Assembly (NCBI GenBank): GCA_963847185.1
Contig: CAWJYV010000007.1
Span: 832,001 to 896,000, forward strand
Reading direction: 5' to 3'
Length of the DNA stretch: 64,000 nucleotides
Source: an uncultured Methanosarcinaceae archaeon
Lineage (GTDB): Archaea > Halobacteriota > Methanosarcinia > Methanosarcinales > Methanosarcinaceae
Shown: one piece after another, positions 8,617-35,190 of the stretch
Position numbering within the stretch: the stretch's first letter is position 1
Layout: each line of letters starts with the position of its first letter
Position numbers and translations under genes: made by a program
The notes under the pieces: model-generated
Told to the model about the DNA's origin: nothing
Seen by the model: only the letters and a program-made list of their open reading frames with translations
The model's database searches: none

Positions 8617-10053
8617 TTAAACGAAATGATAACCTCCGTCACTATATCTTACCAGAGTTGCATTTAGGTTATCGTCCAGCATAAGATTCTGGTTATTAAT
8701 AGAAACGCAAACGTCCATGTGAGTTCCATAAGTACGTTCAAATGAAGTTCTAACGAATGTGCAGTTAGTTAAATTTATCTGTGGAAAATCTTGATAATTT
8801 CTTGAATAGTGCTTATAGGTTCCATTCCTGAGAAATGCTATTTTTTCAACCACAGGTGTGTTAATTAGTTCCTCTCCAGTATCATCAATTGCAAAGAGAC
8901 TGTATGTATATGAGTCGCTATTTTTTACTGGAAGTGTTGTTATGTTTATTTCAGGTTTGACTTCTAATGCATAGACAATTTTGGTCCATCTGATGCCATT
9001 GAGAGAGGAGGGAGAAGATCTCATCATGTTTTCCGAATCTGCTTTATTGAGGAATTCAAATACACTTCTGTTTACCCACTTGCAAAAAGATGGAGCACCA
9101 TCACGGTTTAAGTCATATGTTTCTTCTGAATAGCCAAAAGCCGTTGCGTAATTGAAGCGTTCTGCCAGTCTTAAAGCTTCAATACTTTTTTCGAAAGAGG
9201 CTGAAGAAACAGGAGTTCCTTTATACATCAGTGAAAATGATTCATTGTACAGCGAATTAACCTGAAAAACCGCAGATCTGTTTATGGTTTGTCCGGGAGA
9301 TAGAGTCGTACTTTCAATTTTGTTTTCTTCTTTGAGGCTTGAAAGCACCTCCAGATGTGATCTTTCATAAAAACCGTAAGGATCCAGATTTGTAGTATTA
9401 AATATATGGTCCCCATCACGCAAATGAAGTTCATTTAATTTAAAATCGAGGTCCTTTGAACCATTATTCTTTATTGAAAGACCATATACCACGTAATACC
9501 TTTCATTGAGATTATATCCGAGTTTGCTTTCTGCGGGGTCCCCAGCACCACTGTATTCTTTAACTCTGTATATGCAAAGCTTGCCATTTTCCTTTTTTAC
9601 TTTTAATTGGATATCATTGGGGGTTATTAAAGCAGTTTTTCTATTGTCTGCAAGTTTTAGTTCCAGAGAATTGTTGTGCGTAAAAACACGGATAGTATTA
9701 TTGTCATAGGTTTTAATTATCTGTGCATTACTTACCCAATCAATTCCCAGATCATTCATGAGGTATTCGCTGAGGTTGTTACTTTCGTTACCTGGAACAT
9801 TATCCCAGCTAAACAGGTATCTTAATACATTTTCCGAATTATCATGCATATAAATGCTTGAAAAGGATGTCACTTCGATTTCAGGGATATTTTCCTCTTC
9901 ATATGATAGGCTTTCAGATGACAGGTTTTCTGGTGTTATATTTACTGAATCTTGATACGTTGATTTATTTGATTGTACGGCATTCTTTTCTTCAATGCAT
10001 CCGCTAAAAATAAGAAATATTATCAGAACAAATAATAGCATTCGCAATCCCAA
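8617..10053 (-). CDS. hypothetical lipoprotein
   Basis: 478-aa ORF; hydrophobic N-terminus ending in lipobox-like IFSGC; gggatga RBS upstream. Confidence 0.8.
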   Translation of the reverse strand: MGLRMLLFVLIIFLIFSGCIEEKNAVQSNKSTYQDSVNITPENLSSESLSYEEENIPEIEVTSFSSIYMHDNSENVLRYLFSWDNVPGNESNNLSEYLMNDLGIDWVSNAQIIKTYDNNTIRVFTHNNSLELKLADNRKTALITPNDIQLKVKKENGKLCIYRVKEYSGAGDPAESKLGYNLNERYYVVYGLSIKNNGSKDLDFKLNELHLRDGDHIFNTTNLDPYGFYERSHLEVLSSLKEENKIESTTLSPGQTINRSAVFQVNSLYNESFSLMYKGTPVSSASFEKSIEALRLAERFNYATAFGYSEETYDLNRDGAPSFCKWVNRSVFEFLNKADSENMMRSSPSSLNGIRWTKIVYALEVKPEINITTLPVKNSDSYTYSLFAIDDTGEELINTPVVEKIAFLRNGTYKHYSRNYQDFPQINLTNCTFVRTSFERTYGTHMDVCVSINNQNLMLDDNLNATLVRYSDGGYHFV

Positions 10054-10178
10054 TCATCCCTGCTTAATTCCAATGTTACGATATTCCCGAGATGTTTTTC
10101 TTCGTTTGCGACTCTAATATAGCATAATATAGCATATATGCCTTTATACAGTTCAAACTTTTGATTTAATCCCTGAAA
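10023..10178 (-). repeat. dispersed leader repeat, copy A (lipoprotein 5' end plus upstream region)
   Basis: Aligns by eye with 11151-11298 and partly with 14901-14993 (core tttttcttcgtttg...atatatg...ttttgatt...gaaa). Confidence 0.85.
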
Positions 10179-10264
10179 CATTGATCAAGAGAGTATATAA
10201 CTGACAATTTACAGGCAGAATTGGCAAAAAAACGAACTGAATTTATTACTCTCGATAATAATAG

Positions 10265-10280
10265 CGCCAGTCTTATATAC
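10265..10280 (+). promoter_or_regulatory. putative TATA-type promoter of hairpin array 1
   Basis: cgccagtcttatatac about 24 nt before the terminal repeat; matched by cgccagtattttatatt before array 2. Confidence 0.55.
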
Positions 10281-10302
10281 AGGAACTTACATATTATATA
10301 TT

Positions 10303-10869
10303 GTTCACAAGGAACTAAGCTGTAAAATGAAGCAAATTCAGGATAGCGTAAAACCTGATCCCGCAATGAACTTCATTGACGTACAAGCTTAAAATGAAGC
10401 AAATGCAGGACGGCTTGAAAACCGATCTCGAAATATACTTCATTGACGTACGAGCTTAAAATGGAGCAAATGCAGGACAGCCTGAAAACTGATCCCGAAC
10501 TCTACTCATTGACGCGTAAGCTATAAGGTGGAGCAAATTCAGGACGGCTTGAAAACCGATCCTATACTATACTTCACTGATGCTTTACTGCGAGATGGAG
10601 CAAATTCAGGACAGTCTGAAAGCTGACCCCGCAATGAACTTCATTGACGTGCGAGCTTGAAATGAAGCAAATTCAGGACAGAGTAAAATCTGATCCCGTA
10701 ATATACTTCATTGAAGTGTAAGCTGTAAAATGAGGCAAATTCAGGACGGTTTGAAAACCGATCTCGCAATCTACTTCATTGACGTACTAACTTAAAATGA
10801 AGCAGATTCAAGACAGGTTAAATTCTTACCCGCAATAAACTTCATTGTTGCAGACCAAGCCTTGTGAAC
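10303..10869 (+). ncRNA. putative multi-hairpin ncRNA: 8 tandem ~67-bp structured units inside a 10-bp terminal inverted repeat
   Basis: Unit stems start at 10326, 10393, 10460, 10527, 10594, 10661, 10729, 10796; AATGAAG pairs with CTTCATT; GTTCACAAGG (10303-10312) pairs with CCTTGTGAAC (10860-10869). The repeat is directly seen; the RNA status is inferred. Confidence 0.6.
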
Positions 10870-11150
10870 CCTTATTCACTCTTTTAATCAAAGTTAAAGC
10901 GTATAAATCTAGTTTCTCTTCCTTTATTGTTTTCTTATCTTTTCTTTTTTAATGGACACATTGATCTCGATGGTTACATGGCCTGCGAGAGGGTTTTTAT
11001 CTGAAATCAACACATTCTTTTGATTTTAATCCTATTTAGGACGATATTCAAGCTTATATGCTAAAAGAGAAACTTAGCGGCATTATTATAGCATATAAAG
11101 GTATTTGGAGCCTCTTTAGAAGGATGAAATTTAGTGAAATACTTAGATTG

Positions 11151-11298
11151 TCAGAATAAATATTAACATTCACAATCCCAATCATCCCCGGTTAATTTTC
11201 AGTGCTACAATGTTTTCGAGACTCTTTTTCTTCGTTTGTGACTCTAATACATGCATATATGCCTTTATCAGTTTAAATTTTTGATTAAATCGCTGAAA
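11151..11298 (-). pseudogene. leader repeat copy B with decayed first codons of a lipoprotein paralog
   Basis: Minus strand reads ttg gga ttg TGA atg tta ata ttt att ctg aca atc TAA, versus ttg gga ttg cga atg cta tta ttt gtt ctg at 10053. Confidence 0.7.
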
Positions 11299-11358
11299 GA
11301 CACAAGTAGACAATTATTTAATCAACTGACATCTTAAAAGTACTCCAAAATTGATAGT

Positions 11359-11445
11359 AAAGGTTCGGAGAAAGGTTCGGAGAAAAGTGCGGGGGAAGGC
11401 TCGGAGAAAAAAAAGGAGAAAATTTGGGCGATGGTTGGGAGAAAA
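11359..11445 (+). repeat. degenerate 12-bp tandem repeat (aaaggttcggag)
   Basis: Two exact and several degenerate units abutting the stop codon at 11446. Confidence 0.75.
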
Positions 11446-13620
11446 TTAGTTACTTGATTTGGAAAGATATTTCAAATCGTTCTTCAGCACATTTTTCTTT
11501 GATTTAAAGTATTCCAATGACTTCTCCGGTTCTTCAGTAGTGACCTGTGCAAGTTTATCAGCTTCAATGCATTGTTGCTGTAAATTGACAATTTTAAGAT
11601 ATTTTTCTAATCTACTTTCACTGCCGGTGTTGAGATCATCTATTGAAATTAAAGCATCGGCTGGATAAATGCTTTCTAAATTATCTTTTACTGAATCAAA
11701 ACGATAGTATCCATAATCATCCACATTCAGTAATCTCTTTGTGTTTCTTGAAATATTCTTCATGGATTTGAGTTTTTCGTAAAACTCGGGGTTTCTTTTA
11801 GGACCGGAATGGATTCCTCCAAGACTATCCAGACCATAACCAAACCCTAAAATATCCCTTGCTGATAGCACTTTCTGGTCATTAATTGATTTGCCATAAC
11901 TAACATTTACAAAATGAAATAGATGATTTTCTTCATATCCTCTTTTGGTAAGTTCTCTTTTCATTGCATTTAACATATCTATATGGGTTGTAATCATGCT
12001 GCTGTCAAAATCAATATAGTAAGCATTGATTCCTTTGTCAAGGTAATAATTTATGAGTTCCCTGCCGAAAAGAGGGGCTGTTGCAGGTATGTATCCCATA
12101 ATGTTTTTCTTGTTTCTGATTTCGATGCTATCGTAGCATGAATCTAAATATTCTATGAAAGCATCAAAGTTTTCAACGTTCAAATTTCTGGCTACTTTAG
12201 GAACTGAAGGAATTGGGGTTATATCCGAATGTGAGTATGCAAAGTTAGTCAGGATGTCAATTTCTTTTTCTGTGGGATATCTTATTCCTTGCTTATTTTA
12301 AAAAGAAGAGAAGAATGTTGATTGATGAGAGATTATATCTCCCACAAAAATGGATTGATGATAAGGTACGTTGTTTAAAGGCTAAAGTTCCTCTTGAAGA
12401 GATTAAATTCCGAACCAAGCATGAGCTTGGTCTTGAAATGATTGATAATGCAATAGAAGAAGGTATTCCTTTTTCCTATGTTACAATGGATGGATTCTAC
12501 GGTGAAAATCCGGAGTTGTTGACAGAACTTGAAATTAGAGGTTTAACTTTTGTTGCAGACATAGCTGTCGATACTCTTGTTTATATTGAGGAACCAGTTG
12601 CTGAGATACCTGCGAAAAAGGGAATAAGAGGAAGAAAACCCACTATCCCCAAGGTTTTGAATACATTATCAACAAGAGTAGATTCTCTTTCCAATTCAGT
12701 TGAGGGATGGGAACTTATCAATGTTAGAAAAACGGAAAGAGGGTATAAAAAAGTCTATTTTAAGGCTATAAAAGTTTGGAGACGTCAGAATAAATTACCT
12801 TGTGAGAAGCCGGTATGGCTTCTTATAAGTAAAGATTCAGAATCAAATGAAATTAAATATTCACTATGTAACGCCTCTGAAGATACATCATTCGATAAAC
12901 TTGCAAAAATGCAGAGTTCAAGGTATTGGATTGAGAGAGCATTTCAAGATGCGAAAGGAGACTGTGGAATGGCAGAATACATGGTGAGAAATTGGAATGC
13001 GTGGCACCATCATATGGCATTAGTAATGCTTGCAATGCTTATTTTACTCTCCTATCAGAAAAAATTCAACAAAATGTATAAGATGTCAATTCCTGGAGTT
13101 TTATGGATACTGAAGTACCATAATCCATTGAAAAGAATCGATGCTCGGGAAATTGCAGGAATCTTAAATCAAGATAATGAGTTGAGAAGGAAAGCAAGGG
13201 TTAGCAGATTAAGAAGTTCATAATAATTTTCTGATTGGAATAAATGGATTCGTGTTCCGACGACTGGTAAGTATACAATTTTGACAGGAAACTCCAATTT
13301 TCTCCTTTATTCTTAAATTCCAATAGGCAGAAGTAAGGGCACCCATTAGCTTTTTCTTTTTCCCTTTTTAATTGCTTGTTTTTGTCGGATGAGAATTTTA
13401 AGTCCTGATCTTTTTTTATTAGAGATTCCTCATCGAATTTCAAAAAGAGCTCCTGTAAGTCACAAAGTTCCTTTGGAAAAGAAGTATCTTTGTAGAAACT
13501 GTTTGTTGCAATCGCTTTAGTTGGTGTTTTCAGTTCTTTGTTCCCGATTTGCACCTGTAAACTTCTTAAATCAGTATCATCAGCAATCGAACACAGATGA
13601 ATTTTCGTTTCTTTTGTCAT
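11446..13620 (-). pseudogene. 387-aa hypothetical protein (possible TGT-like TIM barrel) interrupted by an IS fragment
   Basis: ATG 13620 overlaps the PIN stop (ATGA); joining 13620-13294 to 12282-11446 restores one frame (...KGENW/RYPTEKEID...). Confidence 0.8.
12283..13293 (+). mobile_element. 5'-truncated IS701-family element (transposase fragment 12315-13223)
   Basis: Starts inside the motif FLAY...LIDERLYLP..W; MDGFYG; RYWIERAFQDAKG.CGMAEY.VR.W.AWHHHMALV; CT at both junctions. Confidence 0.85.
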
Positions 13621-14114
13621 CTTAACAATTCCTTGAGAATATCTTCTCTTATCCAGAAAGAAGAACATTTTATGCTGTCGTATATTTCTTTACACTCATC
13701 ACTTGTGAGCTCATTAAGTTTCTCTTTTTGCCATAAGAGTAAACCTATAGTCCCATTTACTTTTACACCATATTTTGACTTCAACTGCCTTGCTCTTTCA
13801 TCAATGATGCAGCGATAACTGTCTCCAGATTGTTCTTTTTCTATGCCGGCACAGAGGACACTGACCTCTCCATCATGCAACCAGGGATAACGCTTTGAAA
13901 TTTTTGATATGCATTGTTCATCAACGTTATCTATAACCAAAAAGCCTTCGTAAGCCTTGAGTAATTTGAATGTTTCAGGGTTTTTTCTAAGCTCTTCATA
14001 TACTTGCTTTGTAACAGACAAATTATACCCGTGTTTTTTGCAGATTTCAAAAGCTTTCGGAAAGTTAGCTTCCCGAAGCAAGCAGACAATTGAGGAGGCA
14101 TCAAATATTTTCAT
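13617..14114 (-). CDS. PIN-domain protein (DUF3368/COG2405-like), putative toxin
   Basis: IFDASS, VYEEL, LHDGEVSVL, IIDERAR, GTIGLL acidic PIN pattern. Confidence 0.8.
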   Translation of the reverse strand: MKIFDASSIVCLLREANFPKAFEICKKHGYNLSVTKQVYEELRKNPETFKLLKAYEGFLVIDNVDEQCISKISKRYPWLHDGEVSVLCAGIEKEQSGDSYRCIIDERARQLKSKYGVKVNGTIGLLLWQKEKLNELTSDECKEIYDSIKCSSFWIREDILKELLR

Positions 14115-14119
14115 GTTTT

Positions 14120-14692
14120 TTACCTCCTCTGCAAATCAAGAAAAGTTTCGATATTTACGCCTGCAAGAAAAGCAGCTTTTTCCAAACTAACGATTCCTTT
14201 TTTGTAGATGGAAATCGAGTTTTTAACCCTTGATTTCATTATTCTGCGATATTCGGTTGATTCAACGGTAAAATCAGGATATGAAGCATAGATAAAAAGA
14301 AGAATTTCGTCATTGGTGAGATTGCTCATAAATTCTTTGAAGTCTTCAATGGATTCTTTTTCTTCCGGTGAGAAGAGATCTTGCTTCAGACCCAATACCT
14401 TGATACCCAAAGGAGTGATTTTGTAAGTATTGCCCTCTTTTTTTTCAACAAGACCCATTGATACCAGGTTATCCATGCTAACTTCTGAAGCTTCACTATA
14501 TGGACCAAGAGAATGAGGAATGAATTCTGCCCTTTCATTCACTTTATCAATGTAATTCGATATCAGAAACATTTCTTTTTGAAAAGCAACGTTTCCTTTT
14601 ACCGGTTTTTCATCGTCCACTTTCAATAATTCAAGTATAGCAACGCTTAAAGGAGAAAGATCCTCTGCGATACTATCTAATGAAAATCTCAA
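14120..14692 (-). CDS. Panacea/YwgA-like winged helix fused to a UPF0175 HTH, putative antitoxin
   Basis: G...FQKEMFL...F.PHSLGPYS...L...GLV...Y.IT..G; C-terminal IYKKGIVSLEKAAFLAGV..ETF. Confidence 0.7.
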   Translation of the reverse strand: MRFSLDSIAEDLSPLSVAILELLKVDDEKPVKGNVAFQKEMFLISNYIDKVNERAEFIPHSLGPYSEASEVSMDNLVSMGLVEKKEGNTYKITPLGIKVLGLKQDLFSPEEKESIEDFKEFMSNLTNDEILLFIYASYPDFTVESTEYRRIMKSRVKNSISIYKKGIVSLEKAAFLAGVNIETFLDLQRR

Positions 14693-16979: not shown

Positions 16980-18476
16980 ATGTCTGAAAATACCTCATCC
17001 ATCGTTTCCAAAGTCTGGAGCTTCTGCAACGTCCTCAGGGACGGGGGCGTGAGCTATGGAGATTATCTGGAGCAGTTGACTTATCTCATATTCCTGAAAA
17101 TGGCTGAAGAGTACAGGAAGCCGCCTTACAACAGGAATATCGGGATTCCGGAAGAATACACATGGGATAAATTGAAACAGCAGAGGGGAGCAGAACTCGA
17201 TACTCACTACAAGGAGCTTCTGGAAGAACTGGGGAAAAAGCCCGGGATGCTCGGGCAGATTTTCCTCAAAGCCCAGAACAAGGTCAGTGACCCTGCTATG
17301 CTCTACAAGATCATTGATATGATCGACAAGGAAAGCTGGGTCATGATGGGTGTGGATACAAAAGGAGAGATCTACGAAGGGCTCCTGCAGAAGAATGCAG
17401 AGGATACAAAAAGCGGAGCCGGGCAGTACTTCACCCCCAGGCCGCTCATCAAAGCAATGGTCCAGTGCCTGAAGCCCGAACCCATGAAAACAATAGGAGA
17501 CCCCTGCTGTGGTACAGGCGGGTTCTTTTTGGCAGCTTACGACTTCCTTACATCACACCACCGGCTGGATCGGGAACAGAGCCGTTTTCTGAAAAACAAA
17601 ACTTTTGGCGGTAATGAAATAGTTGCAGGTACCCGACGGCTTGCTCTCATGAATATGTTCCTGCACAACATCGGGGAGATTGACGGAGAGCCCATGATCT
17701 CAAATTCCGATGCTCTCATAGCAGATCCTGGTTATCGTTACGATTACATCCTTACAAATCCCCCTTTTGGAAAAAAAAGTAGCATGACCTTCACAAACGA
17801 AGAAGGCGAGCAGGAAAAAGAAGATTTAACTTACAACCGTCAGGACTTCTGGACAACTACAAGCAACAAGCAGCTTAACTTTTTGCAGCATATCCACACT
17901 ATCCTCAAAACCGGCGGGCAGGCAGCAGTTGTATTGCCTGACAATGTCCTGTTTGAAGGTGGAGCAGGAGAAACCATTCGCAAAAAGCTTCTTGAAACTA
18001 CGGACCTGCACACAATCCTGCGCCTGCCAACAGGCATTTTCTATGCAAATGGCGTAAAGGCAAATGTGCTCTTTTTTGAAGCGAAATCCGCATCAAAAGA
18101 GCCCTGGACAAAAGAAGTGTGGATATACGACTACCGTACAAATGTACATCATACCTTGAAAAAGAATCCGATGAAATATTCGGATCTTGAAGACTTCATC
18201 AAATGCTACAATCCCGAAAACCGGCACAGCCGTACAGAGACCTGGAGTGAAGAAGCTCCAGAGGGCAGGTTCCGGAAATTCAGCTATGAAGAAGTTGCAT
18301 CAAGGGATAAAACGAATCTGGATATCTTCTGGCTCAAAGACAAAAGCCTGGCTGATCTGGACAACCTCCCGGACCCTGATATTCTCGCAAATGAAATTAT
18401 AGAGAATATGGAGGCTTCACTGGCAAGTTTCAAGGAGATTATGGCCACAATTAACGGGGAAAGTGAAGAGAATTGA
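16980..18476 (+). CDS. hsdM: type I RM N6-adenine methyltransferase subunit
   Basis: GQYFTPR; DPCCGTGGF (motif I); NPPF (motif IV). Confidence 0.96.
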   Translation: MSENTSSIVSKVWSFCNVLRDGGVSYGDYLEQLTYLIFLKMAEEYRKPPYNRNIGIPEEYTWDKLKQQRGAELDTHYKELLEELGKKPGMLGQIFLKAQNKVSDPAMLYKIIDMIDKESWVMMGVDTKGEIYEGLLQKNAEDTKSGAGQYFTPRPLIKAMVQCLKPEPMKTIGDPCCGTGGFFLAAYDFLTSHHRLDREQSRFLKNKTFGGNEIVAGTRRLALMNMFLHNIGEIDGEPMISNSDALIADPGYRYDYILTNPPFGKKSSMTFTNEEGEQEKEDLTYNRQDFWTTTSNKQLNFLQHIHTILKTGGQAAVVLPDNVLFEGGAGETIRKKLLETTDLHTILRLPTGIFYANGVKANVLFFEAKSASKEPWTKEVWIYDYRTNVHHTLKKNPMKYSDLEDFIKCYNPENRHSRTETWSEEAPEGRFRKFSYEEVASRDKTNLDIFWLKDKSLADLDNLPDPDILANEIIENMEASLASFKEIMATINGESEEN

Positions 18477-18630: not shown

Positions 18631-18647
18631 CGCCAGTATTTTATATT
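18631..18647 (+). promoter_or_regulatory. putative TATA-type promoter of hairpin array 2
   Basis: cgccagtattttatatt at about the same spacing as for array 1. Confidence 0.55.
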
Positions 18648-18668
18648 AATAATTCCATAATATATATT

Positions 18669-18932
18669 GGTCACAAGGAAGTAAGCTGTAAAATGGAGCA
18701 AATTCAGGGCAGATTAAAACCTGATCCCGAAATAACTTCATTAACGCGTAACTTCATTAACGCGTAAGCTGTAAATGGAGCAAATTCAGGGCAGATTGAA
18801 ACCTGATCCCGAAATACACTTCATTAACGCGTAACTTCATTAACGCGTAAGCTGTAAATGGAGCAAATTCAGGACAGATTGAAACCTGATCCCGAAATGA
18901 ACTTCATTGTTGCAGTTCAAACCTTGTGAACC
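18669..18932 (+). ncRNA. second copy of the putative multi-hairpin ncRNA (3 units)
   Basis: Unit stems at 18692, 18774, 18857; TCACAAGG pairs with CCTTGTGA; same 5' and 3' flanks as array 1. Confidence 0.6.
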
Positions 18933-19063
18933 ACCTTATCAACTCTTTTAATCAACGCTAAAGCGCATAGATATATCTTTTTTCATCTTTTTCCGTTTTT
19001 TCCATCTTTCACTTGCTTTTCTCACTTTTCGTTCCGGGCAGCTTTTCCTAAAGCTCAGAACTA

Positions 19064-19387
19064 GTGAAGGCGGATCCGGAGAAATAATCCGCAAAGAATT
19101 TCTTGAAAACACAGGCTTTCACACAATCCTGCGCCTGTCGACAGGTATTTTCTGTGCAAATGGCTAACGGCAAATATGCTCTTTTTTGAAACTTCAGTTA
19201 TGATGAAATTGTAGAAGGGATAAAACGAATCTGGATATATTCTGGCTCAAAGACAGAAGCCTGGCTGATCTGACAACATTCCAGACCGTGATATTCTCGC
19301 AAATGAGATTATAGAGAATATGGGGGCATTTCTGGCAAGTTTCAAGGAAATATGCCCACAATTAACGGGGAAAGCGAAGATAATTGA
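19064..19387 (+). pseudogene. decayed, internally deleted copy of the hsdM 3' end
   Basis: 19064-19190 matches about 17954-18080 and 19192-19387 matches about 18278-18476, with frameshifts and stops. Confidence 0.85.
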
Positions 19388-19598
19388 AATCTGCTTAAGT
19401 AAATCTAAAACGGTAGTTAGTTAGATACGGTAGTTAGTTAGATCTGAGCCTCACTACCTTTTAACCTTAACAGTTAACCCCACTATCTTTTAACCTTAAC
19501 CATTTAAGTATTGATATAATTTTTCTTAAAATGCCAGAATTCTTCTTAAAATGCTAAATTTCGAGTTCTGAAAATTACCGTAAAAGGAAGGCAATCAT

Positions 19599-33954: not shown

Positions 33955-35190
33955 ATGACAGAAAAAGAACTCATAGAATCCGGAAACATGAAAATGGAAT
34001 GGGCAAGAAACCATATGCCTGTGATTGCAATTGTCAGGGAAATGTTTGAGAAGGAAAAACCCCTGAAAGGGCTGAAAATAGGAATGGCCCTCCATGTAGA
34101 AGCAAAAACTGCAGTCCTTGTGGAAACTCTGGCTGCAGGCGGCGCACAGGTAACCATCTCTGGCTGCAATCCCCTGAGTACTCAGGATGATGTGGCAACT
34201 GCTCTTGATACCAGGGATAATATAAGCTGTTTTGCAAAATACGGATGCTGCACCAGTGAATATTATGAAGCGATCGACAAAGTCCTTGATATCGAACCTG
34301 ATATCACAATCGATGATGGGGCAGACCTGATTTTTAAGCTTCACAAAGAAAGAACCGAGCTTCTTCCGAAGATTCTGGGCGGCTGCGAGGAAACAACTAC
34401 AGGAGTCCACAGGCTTCATGCCATGGAAAAGGACGGAGCTCTAAAGATGCCTGTAATTGCAGTAAACGATGCCATGACCAAATATCTCTTCGACAACCGC
34501 TATGGGACAGGACAGTCAGCCTGGGACGGAATTAACAGGACTACAAATCTTCTTGTAGCAGGCAAAAACGTTGTTGTTGCAGGCTACGGCTGGTGCGGTC
34601 GCGGGGTTGCAATGCGGGCTTCTGGTCTTGGTGCAAACGTAATCGTTACTGAGATAGATCCTATCCGAGCTCTTGAAGCCAGAATGGACGGATACAGAGT
34701 CATGAAAATGGCTGAAGCTGCAAAATTAGGAGATATCTTTGTAACTGCTACTGGAAACCGTGATATTCTTACAGCCGAACATTTCCAGTTAATGCCTGAC
34801 GGAGCGATTCTTGCAAATTCAGGACACTTCAACGTTGAAATCGATATGGAAGCCCTTTCTTCCCTTGCAAAATCAGTCCGAACTGTCAGAAACAATATCA
34901 TGGAATATGATCTGGGAAACAGGCGCATTAATGTCATAGCTGAAGGCAGGCTTGTTAACCTGGCTGCAGGCGATGGCCACCCTGCCGAGGTCATGGATAT
35001 GAGTTTTGCAAACCAGGCTCTTTGTGTACGCCACATTGCAGAAAACAAGCTTCCTAATGGAGTCCACAAGGTTCCCCAGGAACTGGATACTTTTGTGGCA
35101 AAAATGAAACTTGAATCAATGGGTATAGACATTGATGAACTCACTCCCACACAGGAATGCTACATGACCGGCTGGGAATGCGGGACGTAA
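33955..35190 (+). CDS. ahcY: adenosylhomocysteinase
   Basis: CNPLSTQD; DDGAD; EETTTG; FDNRYGTGQS; GYGWCGRG; GRLVNL. Confidence 0.97.
   Translation: MTEKELIESGNMKMEWARNHMPVIAIVREMFEKEKPLKGLKIGMALHVEAKTAVLVETLAAGGAQVTISGCNPLSTQDDVATALDTRDNISCFAKYGCCTSEYYEAIDKVLDIEPDITIDDGADLIFKLHKERTELLPKILGGCEETTTGVHRLHAMEKDGALKMPVIAVNDAMTKYLFDNRYGTGQSAWDGINRTTNLLVAGKNVVVAGYGWCGRGVAMRASGLGANVIVTEIDPIRALEARMDGYRVMKMAEAAKLGDIFVTATGNRDILTAEHFQLMPDGAILANSGHFNVEIDMEALSSLAKSVRTVRNNIMEYDLGNRRINVIAEGRLVNLAAGDGHPAEVMDMSFANQALCVRHIAENKLPNGVHKVPQELDTFVAKMKLESMGIDIDELTPTQECYMTGWECGT

Follow-up and report, generated by a model that had tools for sequence, protein, structure and literature searches.

A tandem-hairpin array in a Methanosarcinaceae genome as a probable structured RNA gene of the spRNA14 type

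CsrB, RsmZ and RsmY are bacterial protein-sponge RNAs that carry many copies of a short structured motif, in a number that varies among relatives. The ToxI RNAs of type III antitoxin systems are built of spacer-less tandem direct repeats, have a promoter of their own and sometimes lie in defence islands. We know of no multivalent protein-sponge or scaffold RNA described in archaea. The subject of this study is array 1, a run of eight ~67-nucleotide (nt) hairpin units at 10327-10846 in a 64,000-nt stretch of DNA from an uncultured Methanosarcinaceae archaeon (contig CAWJYV010000007.1, positions 832,001 to 896,000; hereafter the window, whose numbering is used throughout). With a probability that we put at about 90%, positions 10301 to ~10885 of the plus strand constitute a stand-alone structured non-coding RNA (ncRNA) gene of the same family as spRNA14 of Methanosarcina mazei, an RNA of 241 nt catalogued at NC_003901.1:1237971-1238211 on the minus strand (PMC11456600).

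Array 1 and its relation to spRNA14

The printed spRNA14 belongs to the family with three units and the same sense as array 1, running from the 5' arm of the closing stem to 7 nt past the 3' arm. It begins TTGGTTCATAAGGGAAGTACTGTAAAATGGAGCAAATTCAGGAC and ends ...CATGGATGCAGAATCCCTTTGAACCACCAAAC, and both ends read as those of locus L043; this comparison was made by eye, L043 itself having been aligned with the second array of the window (copy 2) and matched to array 1 by BLAST and a covariance model. The annotated 5' end of spRNA14 is the homologous TTGG directly before the closing-stem arm: the RNA begins TTGGTTCATAAGGG, with GTTACATAGTATTAA upstream of it, and at this place the window passes from ...CATATTATATA into TTGTTCACAAGG. 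Because spRNA14 is transcribed in the sense of the array and from the 5' arm, transcription and strand are settled by a homologue. The initial annotation, made from the sequence of the window, had proposed a promoter-led, plus-strand structured ncRNA of covarying hairpins, and is borne out by this transcript, which has the same orientation and the predicted start, and by the RNAalifold covariation described below. Both window copies agree with spRNA14 in leader, closing stem, unit sequence and the order in which the parts follow, and copy 2 also has three units; unlike spRNA14, copy 1 has eight units, adjoins hsdR and has the closing stem GTTCACAAGG in place of GGTTCATAAGGG. Array 1 is thus by sequence a new member of the spRNA14 family, of which the RNA is catalogued and the architecture apparently undescribed. 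The searchable literature was found to describe neither the repeat architecture nor the family, and the unit motifs and the name spRNA14 are both absent from its main texts. The earlier suspicion that the family was a new one therefore holds for the architecture and fails for the RNA, the M. mazei member having been catalogued as spRNA14 with a putative small open reading frame (ORF).

In the catalogue tables, spRNA14 reaches 9299 and 3414 reads per kilobase per million in one condition and 1205 and 1502 in the other, with a log2 fold change of +2.27 in RNA (adjusted P 3.7e-4; ~4.8-fold), +1.25 in ribosome profiling (Ribo-seq; adjusted P 0.03) and -0.86 in translation efficiency (TE; adjusted P 0.70) (PMC11456600). 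As the fold changes are given as -N/+N and ribosomal proteins are negative in the same table (PMC11456600), spRNA14 is up under nitrogen limitation.

Tandem Repeats Finder reports a period of 67 across 10317-10816 (7.4 copies, 76% matches, score 473), and a repeat search gives start-to-start spacings of 67, 67, 67, 67, 68 and 67; both agree with the eight units at 67-bp spacing, one at 68, that had been described at the outset. The entire 67-nt period is repeated and the units are contiguous, without unique spacers, as had also been stated. The parts of array 1, and copy 2, are as follows.

10243..10270 (+), upstream block: imperfect palindrome TTATTAC-N5-ATAATAA, then GCGCCAG; aligns across non-syntenic loci
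10272..10279 (+), TATA-like box CTTATATA, ~22-29 nt 5' of the inferred transcription start
10301..10302 (+), predicted start of transcription, placed by homology to the spRNA14 5' end as annotated
10303..10312 (+), closing stem, 5' arm GTTCACAAGG: exact inverted repeat, covariation in helix 1 of the full-length alignment
10320..10325 (+), CTGTAA, which could pair with TTGCAG at 10848-10853 and lengthen the closing helix
10327..10393 (+), unit 1: hairpin AATGAAG...CTTCATT with inner stem; canonical fold alone, z -2.28
10394..10460 (+), unit 2: canonical hairpin alone, z -2.31
10461..10527 (+), unit 3: 3' strand with a 1-nt deletion, CTACTCATT; canonical hairpin not formed alone, z -0.55
10528..10594 (+), unit 4: outer stem variant GTGGAG/CTTCAC; canonical hairpin, z -2.93
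10595..10661 (+), unit 5: alone, its minimum-free-energy structure departs from the canonical hairpin, z -0.65
10662..10729 (+), unit 6: 68 nt; canonical hairpin, z -3.69
10730..10796 (+), unit 7: canonical hairpin, z -2.20
10797..10846 (+), unit 8: terminal, passes directly into the closing helix; outer stem forms, inner weak, z -0.02
10848..10853 (+), TTGCAG, partner of CTGTAA, by eye
10860..10869 (+), closing stem, 3' arm CCTTGTGAAC: inverted repeat, duplex of the locus's own flanks, covariation
10870..10908 (+), conserved tail with the T-run TCTTTT (10880-10885), kept across non-syntenic loci
18639..18955 (+), array copy 2: three units of 82-83 nt with the same leader and tail; part of the full-length alignment

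The two arms form an exact 10-nt inverted repeat around array 1. This enclosing repeat, the CTGTAA/TTGCAG pair, the TATA-like motif and the T-rich tail, all named in the initial annotation, were located by coordinates, and its paired variants were found in the units it had named: the inner stem is CGG/CCG in units 2, 4 and 7 and CAG/CTG in units 3, 5 and 6, and the outer stem GTGGAG/CTTCAC is that of unit 4. The CTGTAA/TTGCAG pairing, judged by eye, comprises 6 pairs including one U.G and is not called by RNAalifold.

The promoter was compared across 39 loci, namely the two window copies and 37 arrays hand-chosen from ~110 places, favouring long contigs, each with ~14 kb of neighbourhood. The TATA-like box lies 28-30 nt 5' of the closing-stem arm in 29 of these (regular-expression search), and the rest have TTATATAC-type variants at the equivalent position. 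Directly 5' of the box, the upstream block at 10243..10270 is a possible regulator site. A cleaner palindrome, T[AT]AC-N4-7-GT[AT]A, occurs in 19/39 leaders, 18 of them at a fixed 56 nt 5' of the closing-stem arm. Its exact form TATTAC-N5-GTAATA is found nowhere in the source genome, and with only 19/39 leaders having the palindrome its use as a regulon marker was rejected. At the other end, the tail at 10870..10908 is likely an archaeal oligo-T terminator that forms the 3' end of the RNA. A scan with sigma-70 promoter and intrinsic-terminator models gave nothing useful, these models being bacterial and the host an archaeon.

Fold and covariation of units and whole RNAs

On the plus strand, the 581-nt region folds with a z score of -5.41, and none of 100 shuffles folds as well. 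The 11 units counted by the initial annotation are the eight of array 1 and the three of copy 2; nine of them fold alone into the same long hairpin, eight with z scores of -2.2 to -3.7. For 147 distinct units, RNAalifold predicts an outer stem of 7 bp, AAUGAAG/CUUCAUU, together with an inner stem. In the extended unit structure 86.9% of cells are paired, compared with 26-48% in slid registers, and the inner pair at columns 23/35 is A-U in 83 units, G-C in 47 and G-U in 8. In the outer stem, 5' changes of A to G produce G.U pairs in 53, 27, 49 and 12 units, while the 3' change of T to C, which gives A.C, is seen in only 0-2 units per pair; this one-sidedness is the pattern expected of plus-strand RNA pairing. 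The hairpins end in A-rich loops of (G)U(A/G)AAA form, and the internal loops have as their 5' strand a near-invariant 13-nt segment, GCAAAUUCAGGAC, conserved beyond pairing needs. Genus g4 is the most divergent, and 28 of its 29 units fold alone into the outer and inner stems with differing inner-stem sequences; RNAalifold recovers the same stems from 25 g4 units, three with long insertions and one degenerate unit having been left out of that alignment.

The constraint seems to extend to the whole molecule. An alignment of 16 full-length three-unit RNAs from all four genera of the family yields a consensus of 48 pairs, made up of the closing stem, three intra-unit hairpins and a linker-linker helix, with 95.4% of cells paired against 34-49% when slid. 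Double changes occur in 15 of the 48 pairs, against 7.2 +/- 1.6 in shuffles (0/500 as high). In 36 of 38 loci the two flanks of the same locus form the closing stem as a duplex (mean -16.7 vs -5.7 kcal/mol shuffled), and in the two misses the search pattern took a wrong 3' site; the exchanges in this stem are U-A to G-C and C-G to U-A, with U.G intermediates. The linkers are variable and mostly unpaired. RNAalifold pairs linker 1 with linker 2 in the three-unit RNAs, with double changes in 3 of the 4 pairs. A self-complementary hexamer, ACGCGT or CGTACG, is present in many linkers (e.g. window 10379-10392 and loci L005-L033); dimerisation or folding of a higher order could come about in this way. 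Taken together, the covariation supports a plus-strand RNA fold in which a stem closes the molecule and each unit forms one long imperfect hairpin.

Several observations weigh against this reading. The minus strand is lower in free energy than the plus strand (-200.4 vs -160.6 kcal/mol, z -8.79), so the strand is not given by energy alone. Two weaker candidate pairs, columns 18/43 and 25/33, are A.C on the plus strand in 126 and 73 of the 147 units and G.U on the minus strand; counting them, strand-specific wobbles number 231 (+) and 221 (-), and leaving both out, 213 and 22. Units 3, 5 and 8 of array 1 are poor folders in isolation, and the register of the CUUCAUU pairing is better within the same unit in 13 cases, better with the next unit in 7 and tied in 63. 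Both window copies carry a degenerate form of the upstream palindrome. Transcription and the nitrogen response are known only for the M. mazei member, whose ORF, sORF_117, is marked 'manual curation Ribo-seq yes', so that some translation is possible (PMC11456600).

A family limited to four Methanosarcina-type genera

By BLAST, the element is present in 62 of 151 genomes of the host family, at 1-6 places per genome. The positive genera are g1 (28/34 genomes), g4 (20/34), g13 (6/6) and g16 (7/11), and none of the 65 genomes from 12 other genera of the family has a match. The unit covariance model finds members in 28/48 genomes of the host family (f1) and in none of 102 genomes from five other families of the order. 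When named genomes were scanned with an 18-mer and the hits passed to the covariance model, 34 of 83 loci proved real. These came from Methanosarcina, Methanosarcinaceae, Methanosarcinales, Methanomethylovorans, 'Methanobacteriota archaeon' or untitled records, with the exception of one 3.3-kb contig binned as Cloacimonadota, probably mis-binned. Single 18-mer matches in bacterial records proved to be without a unit. BLAST of plasmid and phage collections gave no match, and none of three single 18-mer matches in viral contigs carries a unit. The array belongs to a family of stand-alone RNA genes confined to four Methanosarcina-type genera.

The loci hold 1-12 units across the family, and the homology of non-syntenic copies takes in ~100 nt of the leader and 60-100 nt of the tail. 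Unit types show partial colinearity from species to species, with the first and last units corresponding in four of four array comparisons. The best cross-species identity of units is 80-93%, compared with a mean of 76.8% inside the window's array; as units are more alike across species than within the array, they are old, individually maintained and not homogenised.

An Rfam 15 search over 9500-11800 at E <= 10 returned only three matches (E 0.19-9.5), all on the minus strand and far below the gathering threshold, so that the array has no Rfam match. C/D-box and kink-turn readings, tried by eye, were rejected: the CUGA-like motifs at columns 24 and 30 are not conserved, and the sole Rfam lead is a minus-strand SNORD69 (E 9.5). 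The family, absent from Rfam 15, accounts for the conspicuous 67-bp tandem repeats of Methanosarcina-type genomes.

Two further copies lie on the contig of array 1. Copy 2 has a TATA-like box at 18639-18647, the 5' arm GGTCACAAGG at 18669-18678, the 3' arm CCTTGTGAACC at 18922-18932 and a T-run within 18943-18955. Its units (18693-18908; starts 18693, 18775 and 18858) are longer through an internal 17-nt duplication, and all fold canonically with z scores of -2.6 to -3.2. The other copy, at contig positions ~457,000-457,200, is complete with a single unit: TATA box, GGTTCATAAGGGG, one hairpin, CCTTGTGAACC and T-run. Its neighbour is an orthologue (82.5% identity) of a gene that in other genomes borders the spRNA14-type locus, whose ABC-2 transporter genes were not found here. 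Outside the arrays, at window position 34813, the conserved 13-mer GCAAATTCAGGAC also occurs exactly, in sense orientation, perhaps by chance (~0.1 expected by a rough estimate).

The flanks of array 1 at 10005-10178 and 11126-11299 both match one ~170-nt segment that sits 150-390 nt downstream of arrays in other genomes, so that array 1 is bracketed by a direct duplication of normally downstream sequence. Between array 1 and a 245-amino-acid (aa) ORF, a 12-nt tandem repeat, AAAGGTTCGGAG, occupies 11359-11409 (4.2 copies, score 67), and related repeats of this 12-nt type occur close to arrays in another genome (L050).

Across the 39 loci, array neighbours range from housekeeping enzymes to transposases, most arrays lie among housekeeping genes, and the most widely common neighbour cluster is found at 11 loci. 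Three syntenic settings recur: 7 loci, that of the window among them, lie downstream of hsdR, 5 lie after an ABC-2 transporter operon and 4 after a PRC-barrel gene. In the window, ORFs of 190 and 165 aa at 13617-14692 (-) match the PADLOC candidate models PDC-M19A (4.2e-13) and PDC-S70 (4.9e-10), respectively. The neighbour had initially been called 'PIN'; Pfam finds no PIN domain at E <= 0.001 in the 165-aa/190-aa neighbour, and the PDC-S70 match replaces that label. For the 190-aa protein, Pfam gives only weak Abi_alpha and UPF0175 matches. The pair is downstream of the array at 7 of the 39 loci and absent from 32; where present, it is in convergent orientation with the array, at a distance of 33-2766 nt. 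The 165-aa gene occurs in 7/41 genomes of the genus, compared with arrays in 28/34, and five of seven homologues lie within 3 kb of an array.

On the other side of array 1, a 478-aa protein (8617-10053, -) has a lipobox-like N-terminus (..LIFSGC) and many N-x-S/T sites. It matches no Pfam, PADLOC or NCBIfam family, and the weak leads are to extracellular domains; it looks like a surface lipoprotein. In the genus, 12/41 genomes have homologues, in some cases 2-5 paralogues in tandem, and these adjoin arrays at all five loci where both positions are known. In view of the lipobox-like signal and the extracellular-domain leads, the protein was rejected as a partner of the RNA. A DDE_5 transposase fragment covering only profile positions 127-248 lies between the two arrays at 12315-13223 (+). 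Just past copy 2, at 19060-19400, is a degraded 3' part of a second hsdM gene, whose end (~19295-19375) closely resembles the intact hsdM 3' end at 18400-18476, and downstream of this remnant, at 19405-19510, direct repeats ACGGTAGTTAGTTAGAT and CTTTTAACCTTAAC occur twice each.

Function, rival explanations and known systems

In the gene as called above, a TATA-box promoter most probably starts transcription at the 5' arm of the 10-bp closing stem, and the 3' arm and an oligo-U run most probably end an RNA of ~585 nt. Its body is eight ~67-nt modules, each consisting of an outer stem, internal loops (with GCAAAUUCAGGAC as the 5' strand), an inner stem and an A-rich loop. In its proposed operation, the modules would bind many copies of one putative RNA-binding protein, as a sponge or scaffold, with the closing stem protecting the ends and the number of modules setting the capacity. 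As with spRNA14, nitrogen limitation would raise expression. A multivalent protein-binding platform of this kind is the most likely function, which we hold tentatively, at slightly less than an even chance. It is suggested by a module iterated 1-12 times, a 5' strand conserved beyond its pairing, unit types that persist across species and the absence of an obligatory coding partner. A bolder version, unlikely as a whole, would make the family the archaeal counterpart of the sponges: a 'rosette' RNA induced by nitrogen starvation, in which a terminal stem holds 1-12 hairpins that sequester or scaffold a putative regulator, the module number tunes capacity, long versions have been recruited into restriction-modification islands and paired copies bound exchangeable cassettes.

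The rival that survives best, although improbable, is a precursor cut at the linkers into active ~67-nt hairpin RNAs, with the closing stem serving processing or stability, in the manner of CRISPR, ToxI and polycistronic small nucleolar RNA or microRNA clusters. Such cutting would suit the regular unit length, which is 64-70 nt in 162 of 164 internal units (drawn from 194 units at 30 related loci by setting aside the 30 terminal ones; units below 55 or above 85 nt were dropped), as well as the variable, largely unpaired linkers and the one-unit locus, where a full promoter and closing stem around one hairpin make a single module seem sufficient. However, spRNA14 is annotated as a single 241-nt RNA across three units, the closing-stem covariation points to whole-molecule constraint, and no nuclease gene is consistently nearby at the 39 loci.

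Quite improbable is a base-pairing regulator or sponge, whose 5' strands or A-rich loops would pair repeatedly with an mRNA or small RNA. Small RNAs described in M. mazei act in this way (PMC4152357), and the near-invariant 13-nt segment in every unit would offer the site. Much of that segment, however, is paired in the consensus fold. Its reverse complement has nine matches with at most one mismatch in the source genome, none exact, where a rough estimate expects ~5 by chance, and none of the nine is in an obvious target position; an antisense target of the 13-mer was accordingly rejected as chance-level.

Just as improbable is a small mRNA or dual-function RNA whose units would be translated into ~20-aa peptides, M[K/E]QIQD[G/S]LKTDP..YFIDA. 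The initial annotation was right that no ORF spans array 1, and it had missed 21-codon ORFs within the units: each unit opens with ATG or GTG, and five of the eight are ORFs encoding M[K/E]QIQD[G/S]LKTDP..YFIDV[R/Q]A. Among the 164 internal units of the main genera, 103 likewise keep an ORF of 17-23 codons from the unit start, and sORF_117, listed 'on spRNA14', is the ORF of unit 1, as a search for the peptide in the supplements of PMC11456600 showed. Against its Ribo-seq mark stand the other fields of its catalogue entry, which has neither a proteomics nor a Western entry and reads 'BlastP no' (PMC11456600). The TE of spRNA14 (0.318 and 0.285 in one pair of values, 1.031 and 0.203 in the other) is at the non-coding end of the range, where the means are 4.49 for coding sequences, 4.96 for annotated small ORFs, 1.13 for small RNAs and 0.19 for tRNAs (PMC11456600). 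The units themselves argue in the same direction. The frame is broken in 61 of the 164 (29 with an early stop, 29 reading through and 3 without a start), and the commonest change at codon 3, C to T in 10 of 149 aligned units, makes a stop. Column variability has no period of three, third positions of codons 1-6 being almost invariant, and by eye no Shine-Dalgarno-like motif lies at a suitable distance, the first AUG coming after the closing stem. In g4 a 1-nt insertion shifts the frame, and MKQIQD is kept in only 2 of 29 units while nucleotides and fold are retained. Since the ORFs are often broken, lack a period of three and are frameshifted in g4 with the fold intact, coding is not a conserved property, and the small-ORF reading was rejected. 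The catalogued 'small-protein RNA' is thus likely mis-classified, its ORF not being conserved and its fold being so.

A role at the level of DNA, as a recombination boundary or integration site for variable restriction-modification and defence cassettes or as a relic resembling a miniature inverted-repeat transposable element, is very unlikely as an alternative, and would be compatible with an RNA role. The two window arrays stand in direct orientation around an 8-kb segment with the transposase fragment, the PDC-S70-like pair, hsdS and hsdM, and another genome has two arrays ~12 kb apart in the same arrangement. The hsdM remnant past copy 2 suggests a past cassette replacement or recombination at the array, and the layout as a whole suggests that arrays may mark the boundaries of exchangeable cassettes. 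The inverted-repeat ends, the hsdR setting at 7/39 loci and the adjacency of arrays to five of seven homologues of the 165-aa gene and to all five mapped 478-aa gene clusters also fit. On the other hand, each genome has only 1-6 places, the synteny of several loci across species speaks for vertical descent, and the plasmid, phage and viral searches yielded no unit. The closing-stem U.G pairs and the one-sided A-to-G changes fit RNA pairing, not protein-bound DNA repeats, and the element has its own promoter and a transcribed homologue.

The remaining proposal, made at the outset, of a repeat-type RNA antitoxin or defence regulator for the nearby operon (the 190-aa/165-aa pair) or the type I restriction system, is scarcely credible, because although spacer-less tandem repeats in a defence island, the PDC-M19A and PDC-S70 matches and the closeness of five of seven 165-aa homologues to arrays speak for it, the pair is convergent rather than downstream in the same orientation, accompanies a small minority of the arrays in heterogeneous surroundings that are mostly housekeeping, and spRNA14 responds to nitrogen supply.

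Most archaeal small RNAs have yet to be characterised, and the family provides a defined, abundant and genetically tractable candidate, with a modular architecture, natural variants of 1-12 modules and, from spRNA14, a known inducing condition. Genetic tools for M. mazei have been described (PMC11456600, PMC4152357).

Among known systems, M. mazei sRNA154, for which a dual function is proposed (PMC11456600), resembles spRNA14 in coming from the same catalogue with a Ribo-seq-flagged short ORF and a response to nitrogen; it differs in that the ORF of the array family is not conserved while the fold is, and that the body of the array RNA is an iterated module. Similar to CRISPR, the array has a promoter leader followed by regularly spaced, partly palindromic repeats. 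Unlike CRISPR, it has no unique spacers, its 67-nt units abut, and there are no cas genes among the neighbours scanned. With ToxI it shares spacer-less tandem direct repeats, but its units have about double the length and fold into long hairpins, the whole array lies within a closing stem, and most loci are outside defence contexts. An endoribonuclease toxin immediately downstream in the same orientation is not a consistent feature of the 39 loci, where downstream genes are heterogeneous and often convergent. Like CsrB, RsmZ and RsmY, the array RNA presents one module many times, in variable number and with its own promoter and terminator. Its modules, in contrast, are ~55-nt imperfect hairpins with A-rich loops, held by a terminal closing stem, in an archaeal host. 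The GGA of the units sits in the 5' strand of the inner/middle stem and not in the loop, and the CsrA family (PF02599) has no match in the source genome (99.83% complete), with Escherichia coli, Bacillus subtilis and Thermotoga maritima as positive controls. The array therefore fails the tested defining features of type III antitoxins, CsrB-type sponges, CRISPR and any Rfam family. It is an archaeal RNA of iterated hairpins, with long modules enclosed by a terminal stem.

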